Shown: piece by piece, positions 14,301 through 62,814 of the stretch | Layout of the letters: the number at the start of each line of letters is the position of its first letter | Position numbering within the stretch: position 1 is the stretch's first letter | From: Pecten maximus | Taxonomy: Eukaryota | Direction: 5' to 3' | DNA length: 64,000 nucleotides | Assembly: GCF_902652985.1 (NCBI RefSeq) | Contig: NC_047026.1 | Coordinates: 2,831,307 to 2,895,306 of the forward strand | Notes under the pieces: generated by a model | The model's input: only the letters and a program-made list of their open reading frames with translations | Told to the model about the DNA's origin: nothing | Databases searched by the model: none | Position numbers and translations under genes: made by a program

Positions 14301-14957
14301 TGCCATTGGCCAGGTGAGCTGAAAATCGGACAAACTTTTGGGTGTTAGTTGTTGAGATAAAACTCGTACTACTTCTTAGAGGTGTAGCAGCAAATGACCC
14401 GGGTATTTATCAAGGCCACGAGAGCCTGCTCTGACCTCTGACCTAGAGATATGTGACATTGTCACTGATCACTCTATGGGCGAGCCTCTCTCTGACACAG
14501 TTTACTCTGCCTACGTGCCAATATGCACACACGTCATTTGCTGCAGGAGAGCTACGCTCCGTTATAATGCACGTATTTACAACTGGTTTGAGTGTTTGAA
14601 CCCCTTAAATAAAATATTTTAATTTACGATACTCTGTAAAATAAGCCAAACTATCATAACACATGGGTGTTTGTACAAACTGATAAACATTCAAATTTAA
14701 ATTCAAAATTGACAAAATAGGCTTAAATATGAAGGAATATTTCAACTTTTATGCTTCAGTGTAAGGAGAATAAGCCTGGGTTGGCGTCTTAGGATTTATA
14801 GAGTGTAACTCTGGGTCGAATGTTGGGAGTGCAATGTTCTAAAATATGGGAACCGAGGTAGTGACAATGAATACAATAAAAAAATCCTAACGAATAGAAA
14901 TTATCATCACACAAGAAAATACAACAATAACATCGATGCTTGATATAAACTGTAACA

Positions 14958-15620
14958 TCCATTTGTTGTCTAATCGTGGTTGTGGTAGTTTGTGTAAACT
15001 TAAAGCCACCATTTGTTTTCTAATCGTTGGTTGTGTAAACTTAAAGCCTCCATTTGTTTTCTAATCGTTGGTTGAAGTTGTTTGTGTAAACTTAAAGCCA
15101 CCATTTGTTTTCTAATCGTTGGTTGTGTAAACTTAAAGCCTCCATTTGTTGTCTAATCGTTGGTTGTGTAAACTTAAAGCCACCATTTTTTGTCTAATCG
15201 TGGATGAAGTTGTTTGTGTCAACTTAAAGCCACCATTTGTTGTCTTATCGTGGTTGAAGCTGTTTGTGTAAACTTAAAGCCTCCATTTGTTGTCTTATCG
15301 TGGTTGAAGCTGTTTGTGTAAACTTAAAGCTACCATTTGTTGTCTTATCGTGGTTGAAGCTGTTTGTGTAAACTTAAAGCTACCATTTGTTGTCTTATCG
15401 TGGTTGAAGCTGTTTGTGTAAACTTAAAGCCTCAATGCGTTGTCTAATCGTGGCTGTGGTTGTTTTTGTAAAGTTAAAAACTCCATCTGTTGTCTAATCG
15501 TTGTTTTAGTAGTTTGTGTAAACTTAACGCCTCCATTTGTTGTCTAGTCGTGGTTGTAGCTGTTTGTGTAAACTTAAAGCCTCCATTTGTTGTCTAGTCG
15601 TGGTTGTAGCTGTTTGTGTA
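14958..15620. repeat. Minisatellite, ~45-60-bp unit, ~12 copies ('aaacttaaagccaccatttgttgtctaatcgtggttgaagctgtttgtgta')
   Basis: Direct reading. The ORFs over this region are repeat translations. Confidence 0.9.
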
Positions 15621-15995
15621 AACTTAAAGCCTCCAAGCGACATTGTACAATGGATTCCAATGTCATGTCAGTATCAGATGACATTGTACAATGGATTCCA
15701 ATGTCAAGTTTGTGTCAGTATCAGGAAGGAGAGACATTGTACAATGGATTCCAATGTCATGTCAGTATCAGGATAGAGACATTGTACAATGGATTCCAAT
15801 GTCAAGTTTGTGTCAGTATAGAGACATTGTACAATGGATTCCAATGTCATGTCAGTATCAGGATAGAGACATTGTACAATGGATTCCAATGTCATGTCAG
15901 TATCAGGATAGAGACATTGTACAATGGATTCCAATGTCAAGTTTGTGTCAGTATCAGGAAGGGGAGACATTGTACAATGGATTCCAAAGTAAATA
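15621..15995. repeat. Second, distinct minisatellite, ~47-60-bp unit ('gagacattgtacaatggattccaatgtcatgtcagtatcagga')
   Basis: Direct reading. ORFs 15587-16135, 15691-16002 and 15704-15970 are periodic repeat translations. Confidence 0.9.
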
Positions 15996-22100: not shown

Positions 22101-23814
22101 AAAGTGTTCTACACCACAATTTGTCATTTTTGGCAAGTTAAAATTAAAATGTGTAAGTACTGACATGGCCAGGTTTATTTGTCAATTCATAACCCTGTAA
22201 TTATAAGTGTCAACTGACTGACATTTCATTATAGGTGACTTGCAGTATTTCTGCACAATCTGCATATTACTTCACACAAGATTCTTTAACCTTGTCTGAA
22301 TTCTCAAGTGAAAAAAGTTTAAGTTTTGACATGCAGCTTTGCATGTGAAATGACAATGTCTTAATTAAGGATTAATCATGGTTAAGTTGTTTATTTAAAT
22401 ATTTCAATAATGAAATTTCAATTCATTAACCAGAATATACCAGTCAAACCCAACCATGATGCAGTATTTTTTTCATTTCATCCAATCAGAGTTCAAAAAG
22501 TTATATGTGGAGATTTTTCACAAGCTCAGCAAGTTTGAAGAGTAATTAATCATTTTTCATTTTTTTACAACTCCTCAGAAGCGTCTGATCTTCAATAAAT
22601 CTGCCATACCTCATTAGAACAAAAGCATTCTAAATTTGCTTGCACTAAATCAATAAATCTTTACCATGGCACTGGCCTCTCTACATGTACAAAGTATCGG
22701 TGATCTTGGGTATTTATAGGCCCATGTCTGTCAACAGAGTTATTGACCCACACAATGATATATTCCTAGTGGCAATATATGTAAATCAAATTTTTTATAT
22801 ATATTCTAAATGTTCTGTGCATGGGAATCTAGCTTTGTTAGCTAAACAGACAGCCTTAAACACTGGTCAGGTATGACTCTGGGTTCAGCCCGCTATAAAC
22901 CTGGTCCAGTTATTCTTGACACCTTTACGGCCAGAGCTCATATATATATATATATAGTACAAATGTAAAGTACTATAGCTAGGTATAAGTGTTATCGAGG
23001 ACCTGCGGTTAGTTGTTTAGAAAAGAACAAAAGCAATATTTCTCTTGACATTTTCACAATAGTTTTGATGAGTTTTCTGACAATTCTATCTTAACTTCAC
23101 AATTCAGAATTTTGTGAAAGACAAACATATGTACATGTCCTTCACAAAATACCTGAAGATGGAAAGAGCATATCTGTGAACCAAATTTAGTATAAAACCC
23201 AAGATTCTTTGAAATTTCAGAAAGGGGTTATTTGTGGACAGGGGCTTAATCGGGATGAATACGGTATTTTCAAATCTACAAAAACAAAAAGACAATTTAC
23301 ACATGATGCCCTGAACAAAATGAAACACAACCAGCTCTAATCTACTCTATATAAACCTTACTAATGGTAATTAAAATTGTAGGTAGTATATCAATCAGTA
23401 GCATGACAATGCCACTGAACAACAAGTTACAACCCAGACCTTCATCTTCATCTATTGAGAAAGATACGCTTGCTGGGAGTTGTTGCCAACAATGATGACA
23501 AGTACAGAGGGAGATAGGTGTAGGTGTGAAGTCTAACATTAATTTCTCTTGGCAACTATGACTGAATGCTTGAAGGTCAAATAGATGTCTCTAAACTCTA
23601 TATCCAGCAAATATAGCCAGGATCAGCAGATCTAGATGGCCTACAGGTAACAGAGATCTATAGCTGTCGGAGAGTTCACATGTACTGTGCATATAGACAT
23701 CAGCAGCAGGTTTTACTTAGTCTGCAGAAGCTAGTATAGCTATATAGCAACCTACACACAAATTCCACCCACAGACATCTTTTCTCACCCTCAATTACGG
23801 AACTTTAGTACTCC

Positions 23815-24625
23815 TGGACTAAATCTATTGACAAGTCACTCTAGGACTAAATCTATTGACAAGTCACTCTGTGACTAAATCTATTGACAAGTCACTCTGT
23901 GACTAAATCTATTGACACATCCCTCTGGGACTAAATCCATTGACAAGTCACTCTGGGACTAAATCTATCAATTGACAAGTCACCCTGGGACTAAATCTAT
24001 CAATTGACAAGTCACTCTGGGACTAAATCTATTGACAAGTCACTCTGAGACTAAATATATTGACAAGTCACTCTAGGACTAAATCTATTGACAAGTCACC
24101 CTGGGACTAAATTTAAATCTATTGACAAGTCACTCTAGGACTAAATCTATTGACAAGTCACCCTGGGACTAAATCTATTGACAAGTCACTCTAGGACTAA
24201 ATCTATTGACAAGTCACCCTGGGACTAAATCTATTGACAAGTCACTCTGGGACTAAATCTATTGACAAGTCACTCTGGGACTAAATCTATTGACAAGTCA
24301 CTCTGGGACTAAATCTATTGACAAGTCACCCTGGGACTAAATCTATTGACAAGTCACCCTGGGACTAAATCTATCAATTGACAAGTCACTCTAGGACTAA
24401 ATCTATTGACACATCCCTCTGGGACTAAATCTATTAAAAAGTCACCCTGGGACTAAATCTATCAATTGACAAGTCACTCTAGGACTAAATCTATTGACAC
24501 ATCACCCTGGGACTAAATATATTGACACATCACCCTGGGACTAAATCTATTGACAAGTCACTCTGTGACTAAATCTATTGACAAGTCACTCTGGGACTAA
24601 ATCTATTAATTGACAAGTCACTCTT
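23815..24625. repeat. Minisatellite, ~28-30-bp unit ('gactaaatctattgacaagtcactctgg'), ~28 copies. It lies in PAO intron 3.
   Basis: Direct reading. Confidence 0.95.
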
Positions 24626-25084
24626 ATCTATATATATATATTGAGTCCTTCTCGACTTATTTTAGAACTTCAGTAATGAGAGACTAAAACTATCAAAACA
24701 GAGCACAGTTAGTGTTTCAGCCATGCCACTGCTCACATTAGAATTACGACTGCAGGTAGACAACAGATGTTTCAGTTTATTACAACATCGTACTTACAAC
24801 AAAACGCTGGAAATCATATGATCCTGTACGCGTTCCACATCACTGATTCGGGTCTAAAGTCTACCACGTTACCCCGTATCATAATACAGGAATTCACATA
24901 GAATTATATAATACACAATCTCAAATATTATTTTTTTAATTACTCATTTTGCTCAGTTTTTCTTTGAAGCATGTACAACAACTATGTTCACATACAGGTT
25001 GTAGATATTCTAATAGCTATAGGTGTCTTTAAAAGTCAGATGAAATTATGTGAAGCTCTGCGATTTTGCTCTGTATATGCATGT

Positions 25085-25500
25085 GTGTTTCATAGATTAT
25101 ATGTGAAGATCGATCTGCAATTTTGCTCTGTGTTTAACATATTTTATTCTGTGAAGATCGATCTGCAATTTTGCTCTGTGTTTCACATATTTTATTATGT
25201 GAAGAGCGATCTGCAATTTTGCTCTGTGTTTCACATATTATATCATGTGAAGATCGACCTGCAATTTTGCTCTGTGTTTCACATATTATATCATGTGAAG
25301 ATCGACCTGCAATTTTGCTCTGTGTTTCACATATTTCATCATGTGAAGATCGATCTGCAATTTTGCTCTGTGTTTCACATATTTTATTATGTGAAGATCT
25401 GCATTTTTACTCTGTGTTTCACATATCACATTATATAAAGATCTGCAATTTCGCCGTGTGTTGGTTTCACATATCATATTATGTGAAGATCTGCAATTTT
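25085..25500. repeat. Minisatellite, ~58-bp unit ('ctctgtgtttcacatattttattatgtgaagatcgatctgcaattttg'), ~7 copies
   Basis: Direct reading. ORFs 24971-25438, 25171-25518 and 25286-25477 are repeat translations. Confidence 0.9.
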
Positions 25501-26123
25501 GCTATTATGTTTTCCTAATTGAGCAGAATACAATTTAATCAATATATATATAGTGATTAATCCACTGGAAATGTATTTCAGACTCGAGTTCTTTACAGTA
25601 TACAGCAGTATAACACAAAATAAGTGTTAGTGATCAGGAGTATACATGGTGAACGATGATCATACAAATAAACTAACTATAAAAGTTCGTAAGTATGTGT
25701 CAACATCCAAGCATGATAGATAAGCTGCAACTGCTACCTGGTAAGAAAATATGTGCATCAATCGGCAAACAATTGTTCCCGAATGATCAATACACATTCC
25801 ATACTAGATTAGCATGCCAATGCACTCGCAGGAAAAAACACTACATGATGCGTAACATGATCCAGTCAGTATCGGCCCATGTGGGAAACCTGCAACATTT
25901 ATATATTAAAAGGTAGACTTCCTTCATACTTGTTGGAACCAGTAACACACCTGCTATATATATTTATAAGTCTACTACATTTATACACCTTAACATTTTA
26001 TTTTCATCTTGATTTTGTCCATCTGTCTGTTAATATAATCGTAAATCTGGATAAAATATCAATTATTGTATTTACCTAAAAGTGGACAATATTTGAGAAC
26101 ATACCCAGGTCATATGGAGGTCT

Positions 26124-40813: not shown

Positions 40814-43800
40814 CTACAAAACAGTATCGGTCATAGCTTAAAGTGAAATATGAATTAATGCTGAGAACAGGTTTCATATAATATATACTATATTACTATA
40901 AATAGCACACTTCTGATGCCACGACAAAGCTAGAATATCTCAAGGAGAGTATCGTATTAAACACCCTTGGCTAGCGAAGTTTCCTGATTTAAGGATAAAG
41001 TGCACGTGGTGGTGTTCTAATTTTAAGACAAATTGTACTACTGATCAATTTAGCAACTAAGTAAGGTTCTGATTTATAGACAAAGCATTAACCTGCCATA
41101 ATAGGTGTTACAATTTAACAACAAAGAAGCATTCAAATTCAAATTACCAAAAATGATTTCGTTGATTATGATTCCCAATGTCCAACAAATAAAAATACAG
41201 CAATAAGCTTTAGGTACCCACATACATTAGAAAGCTAATTTTATACTATATTTAAAACCATTTCATGAAGTGATAAGTAATGGTAATGCACAATTTCAAG
41301 AATTTATTACTGTATTTATCTATCAATATTTATAAAAAAAAAAATCATTTTTCTAATCACTCTTGCACATGTACAACTGTCAGCAGTACTAGTGTACATG
41401 TCTTGCAGTAAACTTACCCATATAAATCTCTGGGCCCCCCCTTAGGTTGAAATCCCATTTTCTCATCAAGAGGATGAAATATTCTATTAACCAGTTAGGT
41501 TGAAATCCCATTTTCTCATCAAGAGGGTGAAATATTCTATTAATTAGCAATGCAAGTTAAGCAAGTCTCTGACATATGAAATGATCAAGTTTCATTAAGT
41601 TTGGGTGTACTCACTGAAATTTCCTTATGTATATATACCTGTAACATCACAATGAGACGATACTATACCGATGTCAAATTAAACCCTTCCTATCATGATT
41701 CATCAAGAAAATGCAGTCATTTGGTACAATCATGACATTGAGTGATTGATGATTTTGAGTTTGGAATTCAGGATCAAAACCTCAAATTTAATCAACATGT
41801 AAAGGAATAACTAAAGAAAACATTACCTTTAAATCCTATAGAAATGGCTTTTAGCAAGCTATTTTGTAACAGTTTACCCAGTAATATTCAGAATCTTGAA
41901 CTAAAGAAATCATTTAAGAATTTATACTTTTTTTGGGGACTATATGCAAAAATATGCAAAATCGTTTGAGCTTTTTGGATTATCTTGCGAATTGGCAGCA
42001 ACACAGCATTGATAAAACCTCCTGTTCTCTAATAAAGATGTAATTTCAAAATGAACTTCGGTCACAGTATATAATGTTGGTGACCAATCTTTTGCAGCAT
42101 GCACTACATATAATCAAATTTCATTCCAAATCTATATTGATCACATGCACACAGGGCCAATCAAGTTACCTGTATATGTCCCTAATTGAAGTACAACCTA
42201 ATGTAGCTTTGCCTGGAACCTGTATAGCTATATAACTAATGGTATTGATTTGTACCTCTTCTAAGATTTACTTGACAATTTATTAAATAACTTCTAGCGA
42301 TGACAGAACATGCTAGTGTGTGCTACAGCACCTGGTTGTCAGTACATGTCTTGTACCACCCAGGTTTAATATTACACTACAGATCTAGACAAGTAGTTTT
42401 TTAAATTGGACATCACAGAATTTAATACAATAAATTAATTCATTTCCATTATCATTAAAAGCATTTGCATTGATTTCAGATCACCAGTGATTTGTTGCTA
42501 AATATTATCACAACACTCAAGTCAATTTTCAAAATATATGCCTTTCATATTTTTTTGCTTCTTGCATTCCAATATATTTAAATAAATTAAAATCTGCACA
42601 TGACAAGTATGTATATACAGGGAAATGATAAAGTATTATGAAAACTGACTAACTGTGCAGATGAGTGTACATGTAGAACAATCCAGTTAAAATTCAAGAT
42701 TTTAATAATAGGTAGGACTAATAAAATTTTCAAAATCTGCTTGTTGGTGGCACTTAATCATGATTATGTAATTAGAATCGACTGAAATACTTAATACAAG
42801 ACTTGCGAATACATATCTTTCACCATCAAATATTTATCTTATATTGATACAAAACTAAAACATATTTATTTGTGTTTATTACAATACAAGGTTAGTCCAA
42901 CATCAAAGTAAGATTCTGCTTTTTCTCAAGGTTTGCCACTCATAAACACATGTGCCAAAGAACGTGGAAGCATGCTGAGTGACAGAGTAGTCTATATAGA
43001 GCTAGAGACAGTTACTTAACATTGTTCAAAGGAACACCTACCCATTCCTTTAACATCACAAATATCACTTAAATACCATTGTATATTTTTTTGAAAATTT
43101 GATTATTTGAAACTGCTTTTTATCATATGCAAAGGTGATCTCTCATAGCATATTACACACATTGCAGAAACTTACTATGGTACATTAATTAAAGCATAAA
43201 TGTTGGCAGTCCACAATCACTGGTCGAACCCCACCTGATCTCGTATTTTAGCTTGCAATTTTGCTAGCAAGTTTTTATATAGTTCATCCAGCAAGCTCTC
43301 ATGATCACCTGGCTTTAAAGAGTATTTTAGAGCGAGTGTTTTGACCTGATAAGCCTACAGAATTAAAAGTAAATATTGACATAATCAATGATATTCCATA
43401 AGGCTATTTTCATAAAGCTTTATATATGTGTTTCTGGTTGTCAGTGTGGATCTTAAGACAATGCCAATGGCCGCTCTGTAGACCTTTATATTAGGGAAAA
43501 TCAAATCATTAGCAAATTCATTTGTCCGTTTTTTTAGACTTTTGGTACATAAAAGAGGCTGATAAAGCCCTCTATGTCAAGATACATCTCAAATTACCCA
43601 ATAACATAATTTTATTTTGAAAAAAAAAACTGATTTTTTTTTTCAATATTAACTTCTGATCAATTCAAATTTGAAAAGAGTAACATCTGATTTTAATCAG
43701 ATTGAGAGTATATTCTACCGAATGCTTTGAGACCTTCGTCGTCTGTCTATGTTCTGATTTGTTTGTTATAATAGTCCCTATTCCCGTTTATTAATTACCT

Positions 43801-44295
43801 ACTTTCATTTTCAAAACACGTCACACGAACATGTGAACACACATATACATACAAATGTAATATCATTGAATGACATCACTGAACTATTTTGGTACTGAGT
43901 ATTGTCATTTGGTTTACCAAGAAAATAATGATAAATGTTAAATTATAGTCGACAGGGAAGCAAACGACTCAAAGCAATATATTGACCCGCCATTGGCTGC
44001 CCCTTATTCGTCACGTAAGTGTACTACGTATACGTCTGCGTCCTTGCGTGACCTTCACACCAGGGGCAGTCATTCACAAAATTTAAACGTCATAGTCGCT
44101 GACAAAGAACAACACAAACAAAGCAAATACATCACACGCTCACCATTTGAATACAATCTACATTGATACACACATTATGGAACATTTTAAACATTCTAGT
44201 TGCTTCACAGACAGAAGAAACCTATTTGAAAGGCCCAATCACGCAGAGATACCATGACAGCTGATAGAGAACCCTAGTAGGTCATGAAAACTTAC

Positions 44296-44485
44296 CGACG
44301 TTTATGGTCCAAATTCGCCCTCCCGTTCGATCAGAGGCTTCAATTATTTTGAAGTCTTTGAACCCGGCTTCTGTTAGATGGTTCCCGGCAGCTATTCCTG
44401 CTATACCGGCACCGATAATTAAGACTTTATAATTTCGTTTTTCATTGGTAGTGTCTTTTTCCGGCACAGTCGCATCCATATTCAT
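44296..44485 (-). CDS. Polyamine oxidase, exon 1 (start codon, FAD-binding Rossmann N-terminus)
   Basis: Translation 'MNMDATVPEKDTTNEKRNYKVLIIGAGIAGIAAGNHLTEAGFKDFKIIEASDRTGGRIWTINV'. It has the GxGxxG dinucleotide-binding motif and 'EASDRTGGRI' typical of flavin amine oxidases. The donor is 'aacgtcg|gtaagt' at 44295. Confidence 0.85.
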
Positions 44486-44727
44486 GCAACAGTTTCAGAC
44501 CAGCTGACCGAGAACGTCAGCAGTTGTTGAATGAAAATATATCTATAGAAGTGATATTTAAAATATAACTAAGCGTTATAAGAACCAGTCGAACACAGTC
44601 CTACTCTCCTCACATATAAGTCCACAGTGTTTAGAGATGTAACTCCACTGGTTCATGAACATCTTCCCAGATCGACTGCGACAAGATTTGTTTCACAACT
44701 GGAGCGTTTTCACAGCACATATTTTGA

Positions 44728-44775
44728 TGACGTCAAAAGGTGTGGCCTCCGCATGAGGTCAGAGGTCAAAGTTCG
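44728..44775. promoter_or_regulatory. Candidate proximal promoter elements of the PAO gene: palindromic CRE TGACGTCA (44728-44735), DR1 AGGTCA-g-AGGTCA (44756-44768), and a further AAGTTCG half-site
   Basis: The motifs were read directly, ~245-290 bp upstream of the exon-1 ATG. DR1 is the architecture of PPAR/RXR/HNF4-type response elements, and vertebrate PAOX is peroxisomal. A functional role is inference only. Confidence 0.35.
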
Positions 44776-47700
44776 CTATATTTTCTATTATGACAGGCGT
44801 TGAGAAACACGATGAAAAGGATAAGTATGTTTACTAAATGACAAATTTGATGGTATCTAACATAGATACAAACAATCATTATCTGTATAGCTTTAGGTAG
44901 CTAAGGTAGATGTATAGCTAAAAGGAAGAACGATAAACTCAACGATTGGTCGTTTCTGTAAAATGTCGTCTGCTCTGAAGTTTAACTGAGTGCAGAAACG
45001 GACTCGAATCTTGTAACATTTTCTTATCAAAGCAAATTATGACACGAACAAAACGAAAACGCAATAATAATGATTTATGTATTTATTTATTACTTATCGT
45101 GGTAGAAAAATTAATATGTAACAGAAAGGGGAACATTTGTATTTAAAACATTCTTACTCAACTCGACCACGCTCTGACTGTTGATGGAAATGAACATCTA
45201 ATCTAATGAATATTGTCATGAAATATTAATTGGCCGATTTTTATAGAACAAATTATATGAAATGTTTACGTTCCATTTAAGTTCCCGTGGCATAATATTG
45301 TTTTTAATGCAACTAATTAATTTTATGAAGACGAGGACTGACAATATATATTAGACCTCATACGTTTTTTTCTTAATCCATACGCAATATATTAAAAGAA
45401 ACCATTTAAATTTCAGAAAACAGCTAACTTATATTCTTAAACTTTGATGCATGACAGTTAAATCAAGCTTATGTCGTCTGTGTTGAATAGCTGCTGCCGT
45501 TTGATAACGAGTTGTAGTAATTAACTACCAGAGGAACGGATTTCATTTTTATATGATAGATATCTATTTGATCTTCCATCGGTTACTGAATCAATTTATC
45601 CAAATGATGAAATAATGGTATTCTATTTGATGGATGAGGTAACAATCAAAATAAATTGTGAAGATTGGCATCACATTGTGCTAAACATTGCTAGAGACGG
45701 ATTTATATAAGTTGTAAAACATGTTTCCGAAACCAGCTAGAGCATTGTTTTTGTTGTATTTAATTCATTCCTCGCAGAAATGAAATCAAGTTAATATTAA
45801 AGATTGCAAAAAAATATGATCCAGTCATGAACAAAACGAAGGACAACGTTGAGGTTTATAGCCGCAAGAGTATTTTCAACTATGTCTAAATCATACTTGA
45901 CTCGCGACACGACATCGTGTGATAGAGGAAAAATACACTGAATTAGAAGAATTACACATCAACATGTTTGACTTTGAATTAGCCACGTGACGCATTTATC
46001 TTTTATATATATTGTATGTTGTGTAATGTTCATCTTTGTATAATTAATTTGCATTGAGGGAATAAAAATCTTGTATTCGTTCTCTCTGAATCATACCATA
46101 CTGGGAGTGTATAAACATTTTAACATAGGAAGTCTAGAATGCTGCTTTTCGATTGTCTGGTTCTGAGGACATTGCAAACATGTTGTGCTAGGCCTGGCGT
46201 TACGTAATATTTTTAAAGGTTTTCACGAGTTTCTAGCTCATGAATTCAATGCGTATTAAAAATATCTCACATTATTTCAGAGAACTAAACTGATAATTTG
46301 AGGGAAATTCCATAAATCTTATTAAATGTGTAGAAAAAATATCGCTTTATAACACCATAAGAAATGTTTGCAAGTATTGCCGCAAACATGCATGGTCTAT
46401 TGTAATAATACAATCACGACTTTTCATTTTATTTGATGACGTCATGATATAGATTATATTATACGTGACGAGTTTATAGGCAAAAATGATTAAAATATAG
46501 CACTGTGTGTATCACTGATTAAAAAAACAAATAACAACAACGTTATTTACAGGACATTTGTAATTAGTTTAATAAGCTATAATTGTTTAGGACTAACAGG
46601 ATGCGTGTACACAGCTTATACTTCTAGAACTCTCCATGGTTTCCTGTTGCAAGCTATGGTGTCCATCATTTTAATAGTTCTCTGAATTGTAAATACTGTT
46701 GTTGACATCAGAGCGACAGCTCTGTGTGTAGAATTGCTATCTTTATTTAGATTTTTTTTTTTATACATTCCGAATAATTTTGACTTACATTTTTATGCCG
46801 AGACAGATATGCTCTTTTTATGATTATTTATTCACATGAATATACCGTGGTCTAAATTAGGCAGTCTGTTTGAAAGTGATATAAATAATGACGTTTCATT
46901 ACCAGGATATAAGTGTCACAACTTTAACAGACGTATATCAGAGGTGTTTACAAATTTAGTTTTCTTTAACTGGAAAGACGGTACATGAATAATTTATTTT
47001 CTTTTTTTAATGCACATCACAAACATTCCAACTGTTTCTAGCTCAAAGTAAAAAAAAAAAAGGTAATATTAATAATTAAAAAAAAAAAAACAAGAAACGA
47101 AAACAAAACAAAGAAAAAACAGGAAATGAAAACCAAACAAACAAATACGAAAACAAAGCAGAAAACAGCAACGAAAAAAAATAAGATTTACGCATGAAAA
47201 ATATTTAAAAAAAACAAAACAAGAGGAAAACATAATCGAGAAATAAATTCACATGGAGAGGCTAGCATATGTTAAGATTCTTCTGCTCTATCGGCATTAC
47301 TTTTTAGATTCGTATTTGCTCTTTACTCTTAATCATTTAATCAATTGAAATATCTTTATCAATTCTGGTTTTAGTTGCATTTGACGCTTAGCCTTCCGGA
47401 ACAACTCGTCTCATTCTTGTGAATTCACGGTCTCCATGAAAATCTTTATTTTGTTCATATTTTTCCCTCCTTTTTTTTTTTTTTTTTTTTAGATTTTGAG
47501 TTAAAATTATGATTTCGTTTGCATGTCGTTATTCTCATTTTCCGCCATATTCGGCACCGAAGATCGATGACGCTACACTGCACTTCAGCGCTACGCTCTA
47601 TAAGCTAAATTGAAGCGAATTGCAATGCAATCTACCGAGGACCGGCGATGTGTTTCTGCCTGTTCAGTATCTAAACTACTCTAGCTCATACCAACGGAAC

Positions 47701-48152: not shown

Positions 48153-49897
48153 TACCGTCACTATTTGCCGTCTTATACAGAAGATAAACAGAACCTCGTA
48201 GTTGTGGCTATGTCATAAACGCTCGTACACAATCCCCTCTATCTACCCGGTAGTAGATGTGCCCGTGAACAATTGACTGATGCGGTAGCTTGTTTGTTTT
48301 ACTGTGTGATAAGTTATACCTGGTCCAAGGTTAAGATCGGTCAAAAGTAGATATATATGATATACATGATACACAAGGTTCTTCACAGCATGTTGTTAAT
48401 AAAACATCAATAGTTTAGAATCGAAATACCTTGATAATACATTTTTCATATCTTCGCCAATACCTATGTCATAGGTATTAGCGAATAGATGAAAAATATA
48501 TGTGTAATCTTGTCAACGAGCTTAATCTGTTGACGTCTATGGGACTCAGGGAGCCATGCTGACCACGTTGTGCAAGGCATCTATCTACTTATAGGCGAGC
48601 CACATATAATGGTCTGGTTTGTTTAAACATTCGTAATATGATTTAAGTGTATATTGATAGCCAAGGCTATGGTGCCTGCGCCGACGAACGATATATTACA
48701 TATGTAGCTAAAAACCTGGATAATTTTCCCAGAAAGGACATAATGATACATATACATCGAGATACATCCTTCTTATCACTAAACATGCATATCCGGCTTG
48801 CACGAAGGGGAACACGTGAATTGACGTCATCGACGCCTCTAATGACCAATCAAAATGTGCCACCCGTGATTAGTGGCCAGGGATTGGCTATTTAATTGGA
48901 CTAATCACATTCAGCCGTGTTAACGCAGATTTCTAGTCGTTTAATTATCAGTGGAGTTTTGTTTTGGACGATTCATGGTAAAAATATATATATAGCTGTT
49001 ATAATGTATATATACTTACCGAAATTAATTAATTAATAACCCCCAAAAGCTAGCAAGATAATTTATCGACCTTAATGTACAACATGTATATCAAATACAG
49101 AAGCTCATGTTGATATTATACAATATTATTTTTCATATTTTTAATGTTTAGTTTACTGATTTTCATTACGTCACATAGAAAGCTGTTCCAAAATATCTCA
49201 ACATGGAATAAAATTAGCAATGTATCATACAATGTACAAAACAAAACAATAAACGAAATCCGCCCAGTAAAAAAAACAAAAAAAACAACAACAAAAAAAC
49301 AAAAACAAAACAAAATGTGTAAACAAAATATGAAAAGCTTTTATCAAAATCCATGATAATATGAATAATGAAGGAGAACGACAATATAAGACCGAGTCTT
49401 TACTAGAATGAACGTCCTTTTCCTGTCAATCCTCACATGTTACATTTCTTATCAGTAGATAGACATTGAGTAAAAATTCCACATACTTATGACTTAAACC
49501 TAACATTTAGGCGTCGGACAACCCCGATGGAAATTAAAAAAAACCGTAAGGTGATATTTCTGTAGTACTTTACAAGGATATTAGTAAGACTACAATTTAA
49601 TAAACAAAACGTTCTATTTTCTCATTCTTGAAATCAAGACTGATGTTCGAGTTTCCCCCAAACTGACAAAGTAAATGAACTACTACTAACCAGTATACAT
49701 TCGTGATGTCGAGGACTTTTCTGTTTTGAAGGCAGGATTTAATGTCGTACAGTACAGGGATTCTGACAAAAATTGAAGTTCTCTATTTTGCATTTTTTAC
49801 TGACGACACGTCAAGGAATTTTTCTATCTATCGGTCATTTGCTGGCGCGATATTTCTATTGATTACTTTCAAAGACATCACAAATTCACGAATTTAC

Positions 49898-50071: not shown

Positions 50072-50165
50072 ATAGAATTTACCCTGATTGTATATCATTA
50101 ACCTCAATCATTTTTATTTTCATTTTAGCACATTGATATCGGGACAGCGGAACAAGACAAACAAG

Positions 50166-50548
50166 ATGACCAAGGTTAAAAGAGGAGCCAGGAAGCTGTA
50201 TACATTTTCTACGCCATACAGTCAGTCCACGATAAGCCAGTCTGCCACAAATTCAAATCCACTCCAGCAAACACGGACGCAGGGAAATGACAAAGGGCAT
50301 TTCTTTGACTTGTGTGATGTATTAGATGAAGTTGTATCTTCAGACAGGCAAGAAAATAAGTCACAATCAAATAAGCAAACTAGATTAACAAAGAAAGCCA
50401 GGAAAGAAGGACCGACAGAGATGAAAGTCGATAAATATAAACTGACAACATCCGCAATTGTAGTGGACGGATTGGGAATAGCTGTTCACCAGAAGTCAGT
50501 TTCAGCATCTTCGCCGAAAAAAGCAGCCAGGGCTGTTGAGAAGAAAAT
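50166..50548 (+). CDS. Hypothetical basic, low-complexity ORF (~128 aa to a GTAAGT donor). Possibly a first coding exon. No recognisable domain.
   Basis: The ATG is in the context 'acaagATGa'. Translation 'MTKVKRGARKLYTFSTPYSQ...KKAARAVEKKM' is followed directly by 'gtaagtgag'. Protein composition gives no homology signal. It is bracketed by the two hAT-like MITEs. Confidence 0.25.
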
Positions 50549-51770: not shown

Positions 51771-52517
51771 TCAATTAACACCGAACGTATCTGACTTCAT
51801 ATCGCGCAAGGAAACAGAATATTTCTAAATGAGATCTGAGTTGATTATGGTGTCGATCATAAATCGTTCTCATGGTCTTCATTAACTCGCATCTTTGGAA
51901 ACCTTGTGTTGCTATTTTTTCGTCAGTCAGTAGCTGGCATCTTTCACGGAAATCGTGATAATGGGAACAAATCATTGAATATTTTATCAACTGGGACATA
52001 TAACAACGTTGGTAGGGGGAGCAGGTATGTTACTATCTAGAAATGGAAAACCGCGCTTGCCATACAAATCAGTTAAAAGCTGCTCCTGATGATTACGTTG
52101 AAAGTAGAGATCGAGGTAAGCGGCTGAAGTTCGTAGTTCGTAATGTCATTTCAAATTCTACAGTGTATCTCCGATCGCTATGATCGATGATTTTGTTATT
52201 TAGATATTATACATCGTCAATATATCTAAGTGAAATTGAATGATTTTGCAAAGTCTCTTTTTCCTGTTCTGATAAGCTCTTCAATATAATCAGCTTCAAA
52301 TGAAAACAAAAATAAAATGTTGGACCATTTTGTCACCAAACTCAACAAAGTTGGTGGGGTGTCGACAATATATTCAATAACTCTCAGAATTTCATCTTCG
52401 GAGACCTTCTAGGTACTCTGCTTGCAGGACCCAAAATTATTCAGAACTATTTGGTGAATCAACTGTTGCGTATTTCTACGTCAATTTCATGTAGATTTGA
52501 AACTATAAAAATAATGA

Positions 52518-52590
52518 TGCCGAAACCCGGGATCGAACCAGGGACCTTTAGATCTTCAGTCTAACGCTCTCCCAACTGAGCTATTTCGGC
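52518..52590 (-). tRNA. tRNA-Phe (anticodon GAA)
   Basis: The minus-strand sequence is 'GCCGAAATAGCTCAGTTGGGAGAGCGTTAGACTGAAGATCTAAAGGTCCCTGGTTCGATCCCGGGTTTCGGCA'. It has a canonical cloverleaf with A box 'TAGCTCAGTTGGGAGAGC' and B box 'GGTTCGATCCC'. From memory it matches metazoan cytosolic tRNA-Phe-GAA. A T-run ('tcattattttta') lies just downstream, consistent with a Pol III terminator. Confidence 0.92.
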
Positions 52591-52932
52591 AGTTATTGCA
52601 ACATAAATCTGCTCAACAAACGTATATATAGAGCCTAGTGATAGTTGATCGATAATATGGCATAAGTTCCGTACTTTTCTTCAGCCATTTGTTACTGCTA
52701 TAGAACGTAAGGAAAGAACATATTCTCAGGACTTTCTCATACTTGAAACTATCTTAAACAAAATACTCTGATCATCAATATTGATTAGCAATACTTAAAT
52801 ATTATTTATGAATGAAAACTTCTTCAATATGTAAATTTAAACATGCTTCCGTACATATTTTATATTATTTCACATACACAATATTATACAAGTTTATTAT
52901 TCTATGCTTAACCTCTATAACATAATTCCAAC

Positions 52933-53330
52933 TATGAACAAAGATAAAGTACAATGAGAATAAGACCGAGAGTTGTGGCAGAGTAAGCGTCTTCTGCCCC
53001 TGTCATACAAATCTAGGTCACGGCGACACAGGTCATACAAATCTAGGTCACGACGACACACGTCATACAAATCTAGGTCACTGCGACACCTGCCATACAA
53101 ATCTAGGTCACAGTGACACCTGCCATACAAATCTAGGTCACGGCGACACCTGCCATACAAATCTAGGCCATGGCGACACCTGCCATACAAATATAGGCCA
53201 CGGCGACACCTGCCATACAAATCTAGGTCACGGCGACACCCGCCACGCAAATCTAGGTCAAGTCCGAGTAAAGTCACATTCTCCAAATGAGAAGAAGGGT
53301 GGTGACAACATAAAATGTCCCTGCTACAGT
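52933..53330 (+). repeat. Dispersed repeat family, copy A, with an expanded internal 30-bp minisatellite (53005-53262, ~9 units 'catacaaatctaggtcacggcgacacctgc')
   Basis: The left flank 'tatgaacaaagataaagtacaatgagaataagaccgagagttgtggcagagtaagcgtcttc' and right flank 'ctccaaatgagaagaagggtggtgacaacataaaatgtccctg' are homologous to copy B. ORF 52915-53286 (minus) is a repeat translation. Confidence 0.55.
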
Positions 53331-61049: not shown

Positions 61050-62459
61050 GAACCTATATATAAAATTTAAGATTTAGCGATAATGGCTGTCTGTCGGCCA
61101 TGTTGTTTTCCGATTGGTCCCAATATGCAAAACTATATATAGCTAGGCACTGAGGGGAACCTACATATGAAATTTGAGAAAGATCCCTTCATTACTTTCT
61201 GAGAAATAGCGATAACAAACTTAAATTGTCAAAATCCAAGATGGCTGCCTGTCGGCCATGTTGTTTTCTGATTGGTCTCAAAATGCAATATGCATAACTA
61301 GGCACCAACGAAAACCTACATATGAAATTTGAGAAAGATCCCTTCAGTACTTTCTCAGAAATAGCGATAACAAACTTCAATTGTCAAAATCCAAGATGGC
61401 TGCCTGTCGGCCATGTTGTTTTCCGATTGGTTTCAAAATGCAATATGCATAACTAAGCACCAAGAGGAACCTACATATGAAATTTGAGAAAGATCCCTTC
61501 AGTGCTTTTTGAGAAATAGCGATAACAAACTTCAATTGTCAAAATCCAAGATGGCTGCCTGTCGGCCATGTTGTTTTCCGATTGGTCTCAAAATGCAATA
61601 TGCATAACTAGGCACCGAGAGAAACCTACATATGAAATTTGAGAAAGATCCCTTCATTACTTTCTGAGAAATAGCGATAACAAACTTCAATTGTCAAAAT
61701 CCAAGATGGCTGCCTGTCGGCCATGTTGTTTTCCGATTGGTCTCAAAATGCAATATGCATAACTAGGCACCAAGAGGAACCTACATCTGAAATTTGAGAA
61801 AGATCCCTTTTGTGCTTTCTGAGAAATAGCGATAACAAACTTCAATTGTCAAAATCCAAGATGGCTGCCTGTCGGCCATGTTGTTTTCCCGATTGGTCTC
61901 AAAATGCAATATGCATAACTAGGCACCAAGGGGAACATATATATGAAATTTGAGAAAGATCCCTTCAGCACTTTCTGAAAAATAGCGATAACAAACTTCA
62001 ATTGTCAAAATCCAAGATGGCTGCCTGTCGGCCATGTTGTTTTCCGATTGGTCTCAAAATGCAATATGCATAACTAGGCACCAAGAGGAACCTACATCTG
62101 AAATTTGAGAACGATCCCTTTTGTGCTTTCTGAGAAATAGCGATAACAAACTTCAATTGTCAAAATCCAAGATGGCTGCCTGTCGGCCATGTTGTTTTTC
62201 GATTGGTCTCAAAACGCAGTATGCATAACTAGGCACCAAGGGGAACATACATATGAAATTTGAGAAAGATCCCTTCAGTACTTTCTGAGAAATAGCGATA
62301 ACAAACTTCAATTGTCAAAATCCAAGATGGCTGCCTGTCGGCCATGTTGTTTTCCGATTGGTCTCAAAATGCAATATGCATAACTAGGCACCGAGGGAAA
62401 CCTACATATGAAATTTGAGAAAGATCCCTTCAGTACTTTCTGAGAAATAGCGATAACAA
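61050..62459 (-). repeat. 155-bp satellite array (~9 monomers), inverted relative to 9512-11008, with the shared conserved terminus at its left end (61050-61100)
   Basis: The monomers are the reverse complement of the 9.5-kb array monomer. The left end 'gaacctatatataaaatttaagatttagcgataatggctgtctgtcggccatg' matches the reverse complement of 10955-11008. The right end is a degenerate partial monomer that abuts a SINE tail. Confidence 0.9.
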
Positions 62460-62462
62460 GAA

Positions 62463-62814
62463 TTGTTTACGGACGGAGGGACGGACGGACGGACGGAGGG
62501 ACGGACGGACGGACGGACGGACGACGGACCACGGACGCAGGGCGATTTGAATAGCCCACCATCTGATGATGGTGGGCTAAAAATAATAAAAATAAATATA
62601 AACCTTATTTGTTTTTTAACAACTACGAAACAAAAGATATCAACTTAAGCTAGTGAGCGAGGGGTCTTACTGTGAGAGAAGACCAGGTACCAGACAAAAC
62701 CCACGTGATTGGGCTGGTAACCCCCACTTCCGATCGGGAAATCGAACCCTGGTCGTATTGGTGAAAGGCAAGTATGTTGCCTACCGCTCTAAGCCAGCCG
62801 ACCACACTGCGTGT
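62463..62814 (-). mobile_element. tRNA-derived SINE (minus orientation) with an internal palindrome and a (GGAC/GTCC)n simple-repeat tail abutting the satellite array
   Basis: Minus-strand head 'ggctggcttagagcggtaggcaacatacttgcctttcaccaatacgaccagggttcgatttcccgatcgg' has A-box and B-box-like motifs. The body contains the palindrome 'tagcccaccatctgatgatggtgggcta' (62556-62583). The tail is 'ggacggagggacggacggacgg...' (62466-62530). The core 62640-62814 is confident. Whether the tail and palindrome belong to the same element is less certain. Confidence 0.55.

Follow-up and report, generated by a model that had tools for sequence, protein, structure and literature searches.

A palindromic cyclic AMP response element and single-nucleotide-spaced direct repeats in the compact bidirectional promoter of a scallop spermine oxidase-like gene

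A palindromic cyclic AMP response element (CRE) and a run of nuclear-receptor-type half-sites lie together at positions 44728-44775 of a 64,000-nt stretch of the Pecten maximus genome (contig NC_047026.1; the whole stretch is referred to below as the window), upstream of a gene for a spermine oxidase-like protein. In human cells, CREB has a strong binding preference for bidirectional promoters (PMC2774331). The sequence AGGTCAxAGGTCA, a direct repeat with a 1-nt spacer (DR1), is bound alike by homodimers of HNF4, RXR and COUP-TF (PMC3384313), the consensus peroxisome proliferator response element (PPRE) has the same DR1 core (PMC2323243), and the RXR response element (RXRE) of CRBPII reads AGGTCAcAGGTCAcAGGTCAcAGTTCA (PMC2248703). 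Among molluscs, bivalve homologues exist for HNF4, RXR and COUP-TF alike, the oyster C. gigas encodes NR2A/HNF4, RXR, NR2CD and NR1C/PPAR, and RXR and PPAR are suspected mediators of organotin toxicity (PMC4070562). Conserved upstream open reading frames (uORFs) are known in the plant PAO2-4 genes (PMC7576179), and published work on the SMOX promoter, in the parts of it available to us, deals with HIF-1alpha, NRF1 and ZNF263 and not with CREB or nuclear receptors.

Taken as a whole, the 48-bp motif stretch in P. maximus is read here as the core of an ancient compact bidirectional promoter, in which a CREB/ATF site would be combined with a DR1-type receptor element. The probability of this reading is put at about 0.6.

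Motifs and transcript starts at the oxidase promoter

The motif stretch and the sequence next to it include the following elements.

44728-44735, strand not assigned: palindromic CRE TGACGTCA, read directly in the sequence, at the centre of the bidirectional core promoter
44756-44761, + strand: half-site 1, AGGTCA, CRE-proximal and the best conserved of the three half-sites
44763-44768, + strand: half-site 2, AGGTCA, the middle unit, forming a perfect DR1 with half-site 1 (spacer g at 44762)
44770-44775, + strand: half-site 3, AGTTCG, the distal unit, which makes the array a triple direct repeat (spacer a at 44769)
44718-44726, - strand: TATA-like CAAAATATG, 1 nt (one T) downstream of the CRE and ~30 nt upstream of the predicted oxidase mRNA 5' end

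The CRE is an exact 8-bp palindrome, and the DR1 gives 12 of 12 matches to two RGKTCA half-sites in direct repeat with 1-nt spacing. A preliminary description of this DNA, made from the sequence alone, had placed an exact CRE at 44728-44735 and AGGTCA-g-AGGTCA-a-AGTTCG at 44756-44775, and both were read exactly so. The third half-site that it reported is likewise present, but AGTTCG is a degenerate form, the other three scallops compared below having AGTTCA. The distance of ~250 bp from the start codon also held (CRE 243-250 nt and half-sites 271-290 nt from the ATG). The label of polyamine oxidase (PAOX) did not, as the RefSeq name of the gene is spermine oxidase-like. The oxidase exons, found as minus-strand stop-to-stop open reading frames of a flavin adenine dinucleotide (FAD) amine oxidase, translate identically to P. 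maximus XP_033757047.1 'spermine oxidase-like', and the RefSeq start MNMDATV places the ATG at 44485-44483 on the minus strand.

Evidence for the transcript starts was obtained from nine RNA-seq contigs of Argopecten irradians mapped to the genomic locus of that species (L001). The longest oxidase contigs are colinear with the genome and have a 203-nt leader with no intron in the 5' untranslated region (5'UTR). Their 5' end (contig L002) is at L001:9798, about 38 bp downstream of the CRE (9753-9760). The 14-mer at this position, AAATCTTGTCGCAG, is identical in Pecten at window positions 44676-44689, within a 92%-identical colinear alignment, and we therefore infer the exact transcription start site (TSS) in Pecten at about 44689, a minimum estimate given that assembled contigs can be 5'-truncated. 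Counted from this start, the positions are about -39 to -46 for the CRE and about -67 to -86 for the half-sites. A TSS far from the motifs, which the preliminary description had named as grounds for giving up its proposal, was not found, the A. irradians mRNA starting 38 bp from the CRE. The TATA-like element has counterparts in Mytilus (TTGAAATATG) and Tegillarca (TCAAAATATG), and CAAAATATG would have the role of a TATA box.

44676-44689 (about 44689), - strand: predicted SMOX-like mRNA 5' end, placed where the longest A. irradians contig starts in the homologous sequence
44486-44689, - strand: SMOX-like 5'UTR, at least 204 nt, unspliced, 74-93% invariant over four scallops
44296-44485, - strand: coding part of oxidase exon 1, with the FAD-binding GxGxxG motif, ending at a GTAAGT donor
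44790-44824, + strand: first coding exon of LOC117339511, MTGVEKHDEKD, donor AA/GTATGT, the RefSeq protein matching the window
about 50150-50540, and also 52497-52598, + strand: exon 2 and a later part of LOC117339511

On the other side of the motifs, LOC117339511 is annotated in RefSeq as a divergent gene on the + strand. It encodes 191 amino acids, includes no Pfam domain, and has homologues from scallops only in a protein search. Its ATG is 15 nt beyond half-site 3, the array thus abutting the gene start, and coding resumes about 5.3 kb past the first exon. The oxidase and LOC117339511 ATGs are 305 bp apart in Pecten. In A. irradians, the mRNA contig of the LOC117339511 orthologue begins at L001:9717, inside the distal half-site, and the two mRNA 5' ends are at most 80 bp apart, the CRE being 37 bp from one and 35 bp from the other. 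Because both mRNA 5' ends flank them closely, the motifs fill a bidirectional core promoter of no more than 80 bp. Hence, the locus in scallops is a compact bidirectional core promoter with a palindromic CRE at its centre: the genes are head-to-head with TSSs less than 1 kb apart, and the CRE is within about 250 bp of the TSS. Divergent genes are annotated at the locus in M. yessoensis and Mytilus as well. Both this layout and the position of the DR1 against the LOC117339511 start had been overlooked in the preliminary description.

LOC117339511 itself is fast-evolving, its coding exon being 64-69% identical among scallops, far less than the shared promoter. In tblastn searches for an orthologue beyond scallops, no match below E = 0.6 was obtained at the loci of mussel, oyster, Mya and ark clam. 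The gene upstream of Mya SMOX has a weak N-terminal likeness only, with RRTFKAPFSQTSQ corresponding to scallop KLYTFSTPYSQS, and a faint likeness to this gene was also noted for the C-terminal scallop motif MMRLKVLGTIFKMK-ELDI-R-RRL.

Motif counts in the window were compared with those in 100 dinucleotide shuffles of the 64 kb. TGACGTCA occurs seven times against 0.63 expected, a count reached in 0/100 shuffles, and AGGTCANAGGTCA with up to one mismatch occurs twice against 0.21 expected, a count reached in 4/100. The AGGTCA hexamer is present 50 times against 27.6 expected, partly owing to a 30-bp tandem array at 52969-53298. A second perfect DR1, AGGTCAGAGGTCA at 14432-14444 (- strand), has flanks unlike those of the promoter. 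It sits in a short 7-mer tandem (AGGTCAG AGGTCAG AG), and perfect DR1s can therefore arise by slippage. Taken alone, within one 64-kb window, the DR1 is mildly unusual; as judged from the sequences compared, the real support for the motifs is their retention across species.

The other copies of TGACGTCA, which is 11-fold over-represented in the window, are at 1852, 2429, 31584, 46437, 48019 and 48822. Two copies are inside a duplicated repeat (the 1899-2047 and 2457-2605 family), and the four others read TGACGTCAT, three of these being in the first intron of LOC117339511. The copy at 48822, with CCAAT and ATTGG boxes after it, may mark another promoter.

Conservation among scallops and across molluscs

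The Pecten locus was aligned with the genomic loci of A. irradians, Ylistrum balloti (L011) and Mizuhopecten yessoensis (L012). The block consisting of the promoter, 5'UTR and exon 1 (about 43800-44900) is 83-92% identical, and the surrounding introns and intergenic DNA are mostly unalignable. The CRE is invariant in 4/4 scallops and forms part of the second longest invariant run in the 1.1-kb conserved block.

44712-44750, - strand: 39-nt block GGAGGCCACACCTTTTGACGTCATCAAAATATGTGCTGT, invariant in the four scallops, with a CACC-box-like motif, the CRE and TATA-like AAAATATG

The half-site region is 75% invariant, the 14-nt spacer just beyond it only 13%, and homology between Pecten and Argopecten stops at 44774, in half-site 3. 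In + orientation, the array reads as follows.

Pecten: AGGTCA g AGGTCA a AGTTCG
Argopecten: GGGTCA g AGGTCA a AGTTCA
Ylistrum: AGGTCA a AGGTAA a AGTTCA
Mizuhopecten: AGGTCA a GGGTTA a AGTTCA

Among the species compared, Pecten alone has the perfect DR1, and the middle half-site is AGGTCA in Pecten and Argopecten only. The three-unit array persists in all four scallops.

Beyond scallops, the loci of Mytilus edulis, Ostrea edulis, Mya arenaria, Tegillarca granosa and the limpet Patella vulgata were examined, and general similarity to the scallop promoter is lost at all five. Mytilus (-235), Ostrea (-245), Mya (-216) and Patella (-262) nevertheless have an exact TGACGTCA, the position in Pecten being -250 from the ATG. 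Tegillarca has the half-CRE AAACGTCA, with AAACGTCATCAAAATATG at -222 from the ATG. Judged from local CRE density, a 71-bp window would hold an exact CRE by chance with a probability of about 0.005 per lineage. All five bivalve orders have half-sites in the same orientation and with DR1 spacing, 16-27 bp from the CRE on its upstream side (gene orientation). In gene orientation, those outside scallops read as follows.

Mytilus: TCAACT t TGAACT t TCACCT
Ostrea: TCAACT t TAACCT
Tegillarca: TGACCT t TGATCC t TGACCT t TGAATA
Mya: TGACCT g TGGCCT

The units keep a 7-bp periodicity, there being three in all scallops and Mytilus, four in Tegillarca, and two in Ostrea and Mya. In + orientation, the counterparts of half-site 1 are AGGTCA in Tegillarca, AGGTGA in Mytilus and AGGTTA in Ostrea, that of half-site 2 in Mytilus is AGTTCA, and those of half-site 3 are AGTTGA in Mytilus and Ostrea. 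The best DR1 scores out of 12, all in the same orientation, are 10 in Mytilus (P = 0.0028), 9 in Ostrea (P = 0.035), 10 in Tegillarca (P = 0.0058) and 11 in Mya (P = 0.0013), the P values being empirical, against all equally sized windows of the same loci. Combined by Fisher's method for the four non-scallop bivalves, they give P = 1.3e-6 when the orientation has to match and 6e-6 when it may be either, values to be read with the sequences being homologous and not independent draws. Since similarity outside the motif islands is lost between the bivalve orders, residual neutral similarity is an unlikely explanation of the shared array. The CRE and DR1-like array are thus retained in scallops, mussel, oyster, ark clam and Mya, in line with the conservation check proposed in the preliminary description, but in the limpet the CRE only is in place, and the perfect DR1 from which that proposal started is peculiar to Pecten.

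Three further islands of conservation were observed. The first, GCAGACG (SMAD-box-like CAGAC), is at 44967-44973 in gene orientation, the + strand reading ATGTCGTCTGCT, about 170-200 bp beyond the DR1 and, in Pecten, in intron 1 of LOC117339511. The motif recurs between -415 and -450 relative to the oxidase ATG in all scallops, Mytilus, Ostrea, Mya and Tegillarca; Patella has it at -561. The second, GCTGACGTTCTCGGTCAGCTGG at 44500-44521 (- strand), is 15-36 nt upstream of the oxidase ATG and consists of an inverted repeat, GCTGAC/GTCAGC, with a 7-nt loop, overlapping the E-box CAGCTG. It might form a hairpin in the 5'UTR or serve as a downstream DNA element. Just upstream of the ATG, TGACG...GTCAGCTG recurs in Mytilus and Ostrea; Patella and Tegillarca have CAGCTG there. 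In Tegillarca, the coding sequence start annotated for the orthologue (locus L019, 5411-5440) appears to be mis-set; the ATG is probably 27 nt downstream because the conserved TCAGCTG...ATG context lies there. The third island, in oxidase intron 1 at 44032-44116 (- strand), is the longest invariant run when the four scallops are aligned, with 54 nt and then another 29 nt. It includes CTATGACGT, TGAAGGTCA (an extended monomeric nuclear-receptor half-site), GCAGACG and ACGTGACG, with a CCAAT box (CAGCCAATGG) after them, had no match in Rfam, and may be an alternative promoter or an intronic enhancer.

The leader of the oxidase mRNA includes one further feature.

44576-44662, - strand: uORF of 28 codons, MFMNQWSYISKHCGLICEESRTVFDWFL and stop, inside the oxidase 5'UTR, transcribed in A. 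irradians

The uORF is present in all four scallops, and codon position 3 accounts for 7 of its 11 variable sites (P = 0.039), a bias that hints at selection at the peptide level. The peptide is conserved only within Pectinidae, and the mussel and oyster leaders include uORFs with unrelated peptides. The context of the upstream AUG, GAAGATGTT, is common to scallop and oyster.

On a larger scale, the oxidase locus is flanked on both sides by arrays of a 155-bp satellite, at 9498-11037 and 61083-62494, which are inverted relative to each other, with about 92% complementarity and a distance of ~50 kb between them. Further minisatellites are at 14932-15954, 23760-24694, 25053-25503 and 52969-53298, the last being AGGTCA-rich.

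Possible functions of the motif stretch

Since the arrangement persists in five bivalve orders, and the CRE in a limpet too, the CRE and the array are probably both working switches. The CRE, midway between the two starts, would most likely be bound by a CREB/ATF-type bZIP dimer and act as the main activator in both directions, aided in the oxidase direction by TATA-like AAAATATG, 1 nt (one T) away. The AGGTCA-n-AGGTCA-n-AGTTCR array, beside the CRE and at the LOC117339511 start, would constitute a tandem DR1-type nuclear-receptor element. Its most likely occupant would be a DR1-preferring receptor (HNF4, RXR, COUP-TF, TR2/4-like, or an RXR heterodimer, e.g. with the mollusc PPAR homologue), which would modulate the output. 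It is the binding proteins and the sign of their effect that we infer here. The identity of the receptor cannot be read from the sequence because HNF4, RXR, COUP-TF and PPAR all use the same DR1 core. The HNF4-specific CAAAGTCCA, as defined previously (PMC3384313), is absent, as the array reads CAAAGTTCG/A and the distal half-site is AGTTCA and not AGTCCA. HNF4 can still bind a generic DR1.

Several observations weigh against the stretch being an ancient bidirectional promoter of this kind. The TSSs were placed with the help of RNA-seq contigs assembled for a sister genus, and the same divergent gene pair is demonstrated in scallops only. Conservation at the scallop level is not motif-specific: because the whole 5'UTR/promoter block is highly conserved, the scallops alone cannot show a constraint on the motifs. 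The middle half-site is decayed in Ylistrum (AGGTAA) and Mizuhopecten (GGGTTA), the oyster keeps two weak half-sites only (9/12 matches, P = 0.035), and the half-site cluster of Patella (...TGAACC ta TGAACT t TACCCT), being ~190 bp further upstream, is weaker evidence. Furthermore, the array abuts or overlaps the LOC117339511 transcript start, and its conservation could reflect an initiator or 5'UTR function; the A-spaced repeats also hold TCF/LEF-like CTTTGA cores.

The last two points lead to the alternative that survives best, in which the direct repeats would be the initiator or 5' leader of LOC117339511, or TCF/LEF-type sites with CTTTGA cores, the CRE being the sole classical upstream element. 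The neighbour contig in A. irradians starts inside half-site 3 and could extend further upstream, and the Pecten ATG is only 15 nt past the array. TCA is the core of metazoan initiators, and every AGGTCA contains it. The repeats of Tegillarca and Mytilus contain TTCAAAG and ATCAAAG, which fits TCF/LEF, but those of the oyster are without a TCF core (TTAAAG). The main point against this explanation is that the CRE-proximal TGACCT is kept best of all units, and no CTTTG core follows it in Pecten and Argopecten. In addition, the 7-bp periodicity and the outer half-site bases are kept in lineages without a demonstrated divergent gene. An initiator or TCF/LEF role for the repeats is possible, though clearly the less probable account.

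The preliminary description had proposed a nuclear-receptor-regulated promoter on the grounds that PAOX is a peroxisomal enzyme and peroxisomal genes are PPAR targets. The proximal position and the conserved element of nuclear-receptor type speak for the proposal in its general form, but the PPAR/peroxisome rationale is not borne out. If the DR1 were a PPRE bound by PPAR/RXR, a peroxisomal polyamine oxidase would be placed in the peroxisome-proliferator programme. The element is conserved, oysters possess RXR as well as a PPAR homologue, CgNR1C, and mussels have a documented proliferation of peroxisomes (PMC4070562). However, a canonical C-terminal type 1 peroxisomal targeting signal (PTS1; [SAC][KRH][LM]) was found in 0/27 mollusc and other invertebrate orthologues checked, the Pecten protein ending in ...DMYNV. 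The premise of a peroxisomal gene fails because no orthologue checked has a PTS1 and the protein is annotated as SMOX-like, although a PTS1-independent import could still take place. PPREs typically carry an A/T-rich AACT-type 5' extension, which favours PPAR. This extension is absent in every species compared, the flank being GCATG, CCATG or AGATG in scallops (i.e. CATG/GATG in all of them) and TATGC in mussel. The spacer is G in Pecten and Argopecten, A being preferred, and the DR1 does not discriminate between HNF4, RXR, COUP-TF and PPAR. No connection of PAOX with PPAR emerged from a search of the literature, the matches being pAOX plasmids (pAOX-Luc at the top), Pichia AOX promoters and unrelated papers. 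A PPRE at this position is hence considered unlikely.

Less probable still is that the motifs are chance matches in a block conserved for other reasons, e.g. constraint on the 5'UTR or at the RNA level. All of 44486-44750 is 74-100% invariant in scallops, and a single perfect DR1 per 64 kb is only mildly unexpected. However, beyond scallops the exact CRE and the same-orientation DR1-like array persist at matching positions despite the lost similarity. As the motif region is upstream of the observed oxidase mRNA 5' end, it is not accounted for by constraint on the oxidase transcript at the RNA level. Origins from a transposon or repeat (no repeat family over 44500-45000, unrelated flanks at the 14432 (- strand) copy, orthologous conservation of the block) and from a structured RNA (only a chance CsrC match at 12 bits in an Rfam scan of 43700-45000) were rejected.

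The preferred reading, a bidirectional promoter with a CREB/ATF site and a DR1-type element, can be extended further in time. A promoter module of the form GCAGACG ... tandem DR1 ... CRE ... uAUG ... CAGCTG-ATG might predate the split of bivalves and gastropods and couple RXR/HNF4-type and cyclic AMP/CREB signalling to polyamine catabolism. This extension is doubtful. If true, the module would be a natural, deeply conserved RXRE-like target for studies of mollusc RXR/PPAR biology, including endocrine disruption by organotins.

Comparison with known elements

A CRE together with a DR1 or RXRE in a bidirectional promoter consists of known kinds of element and is by itself ordinary biology. What sets this locus apart is the depth of conservation, which indicates that core-promoter architecture can outlast deep mollusc divergence where other non-coding DNA is unalignable. 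To our knowledge, and as an impression formed without a search, natural response elements of mollusc nuclear receptors are little characterised. The practical value of the array would be as a candidate for such an element. A tandem DR1 beside a CRE, its position fixed over several bivalve orders, offers a concrete and cheap test substrate for HNF4, RXR, COUP-TF, PPAR and CREB, and polyamine catabolism in bivalves is flagged as possibly hormone- or cyclic AMP-regulated.

As regards the uORF alone, the plant PAO2-4 genes likewise have one in the leader of a polyamine oxidase mRNA (PMC7576179), with no sequence similarity to that of scallops. The perfect AGGTCA-n-AGGTCA of Pecten is like the generic DR1/PPRE, and the spacer in most species is A, as in AGGTCAAAGGTCA. 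Unlike a PPRE, the scallop array has no PPAR-type 5' extension, and its target enzyme has no PTS1. In mammalian bidirectional promoters occupied by CREB/ATF, a full palindromic CRE is likewise found within tens of bp of two divergent TSSs; the scallop promoter differs from these in being AT-rich and without a CpG island, and in its unusually short distance between TSSs (at most 80 bp).

In layout, the closest named analogue of the array appears to be the CRBPII RXRE, which likewise consists of at least three AGGTCA/AGTTCA direct repeats with 1-nt spacing, ends in AGTTCA, and is located in a proximal promoter. The CRBPII element has four units with c spacers, whereas the scallop array has three units with g/a spacers. 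Unlike the CRBPII RXRE, the scallop array, for which a response to RXR is putative, has a CRE 21 bp away and sits where a divergent gene starts.

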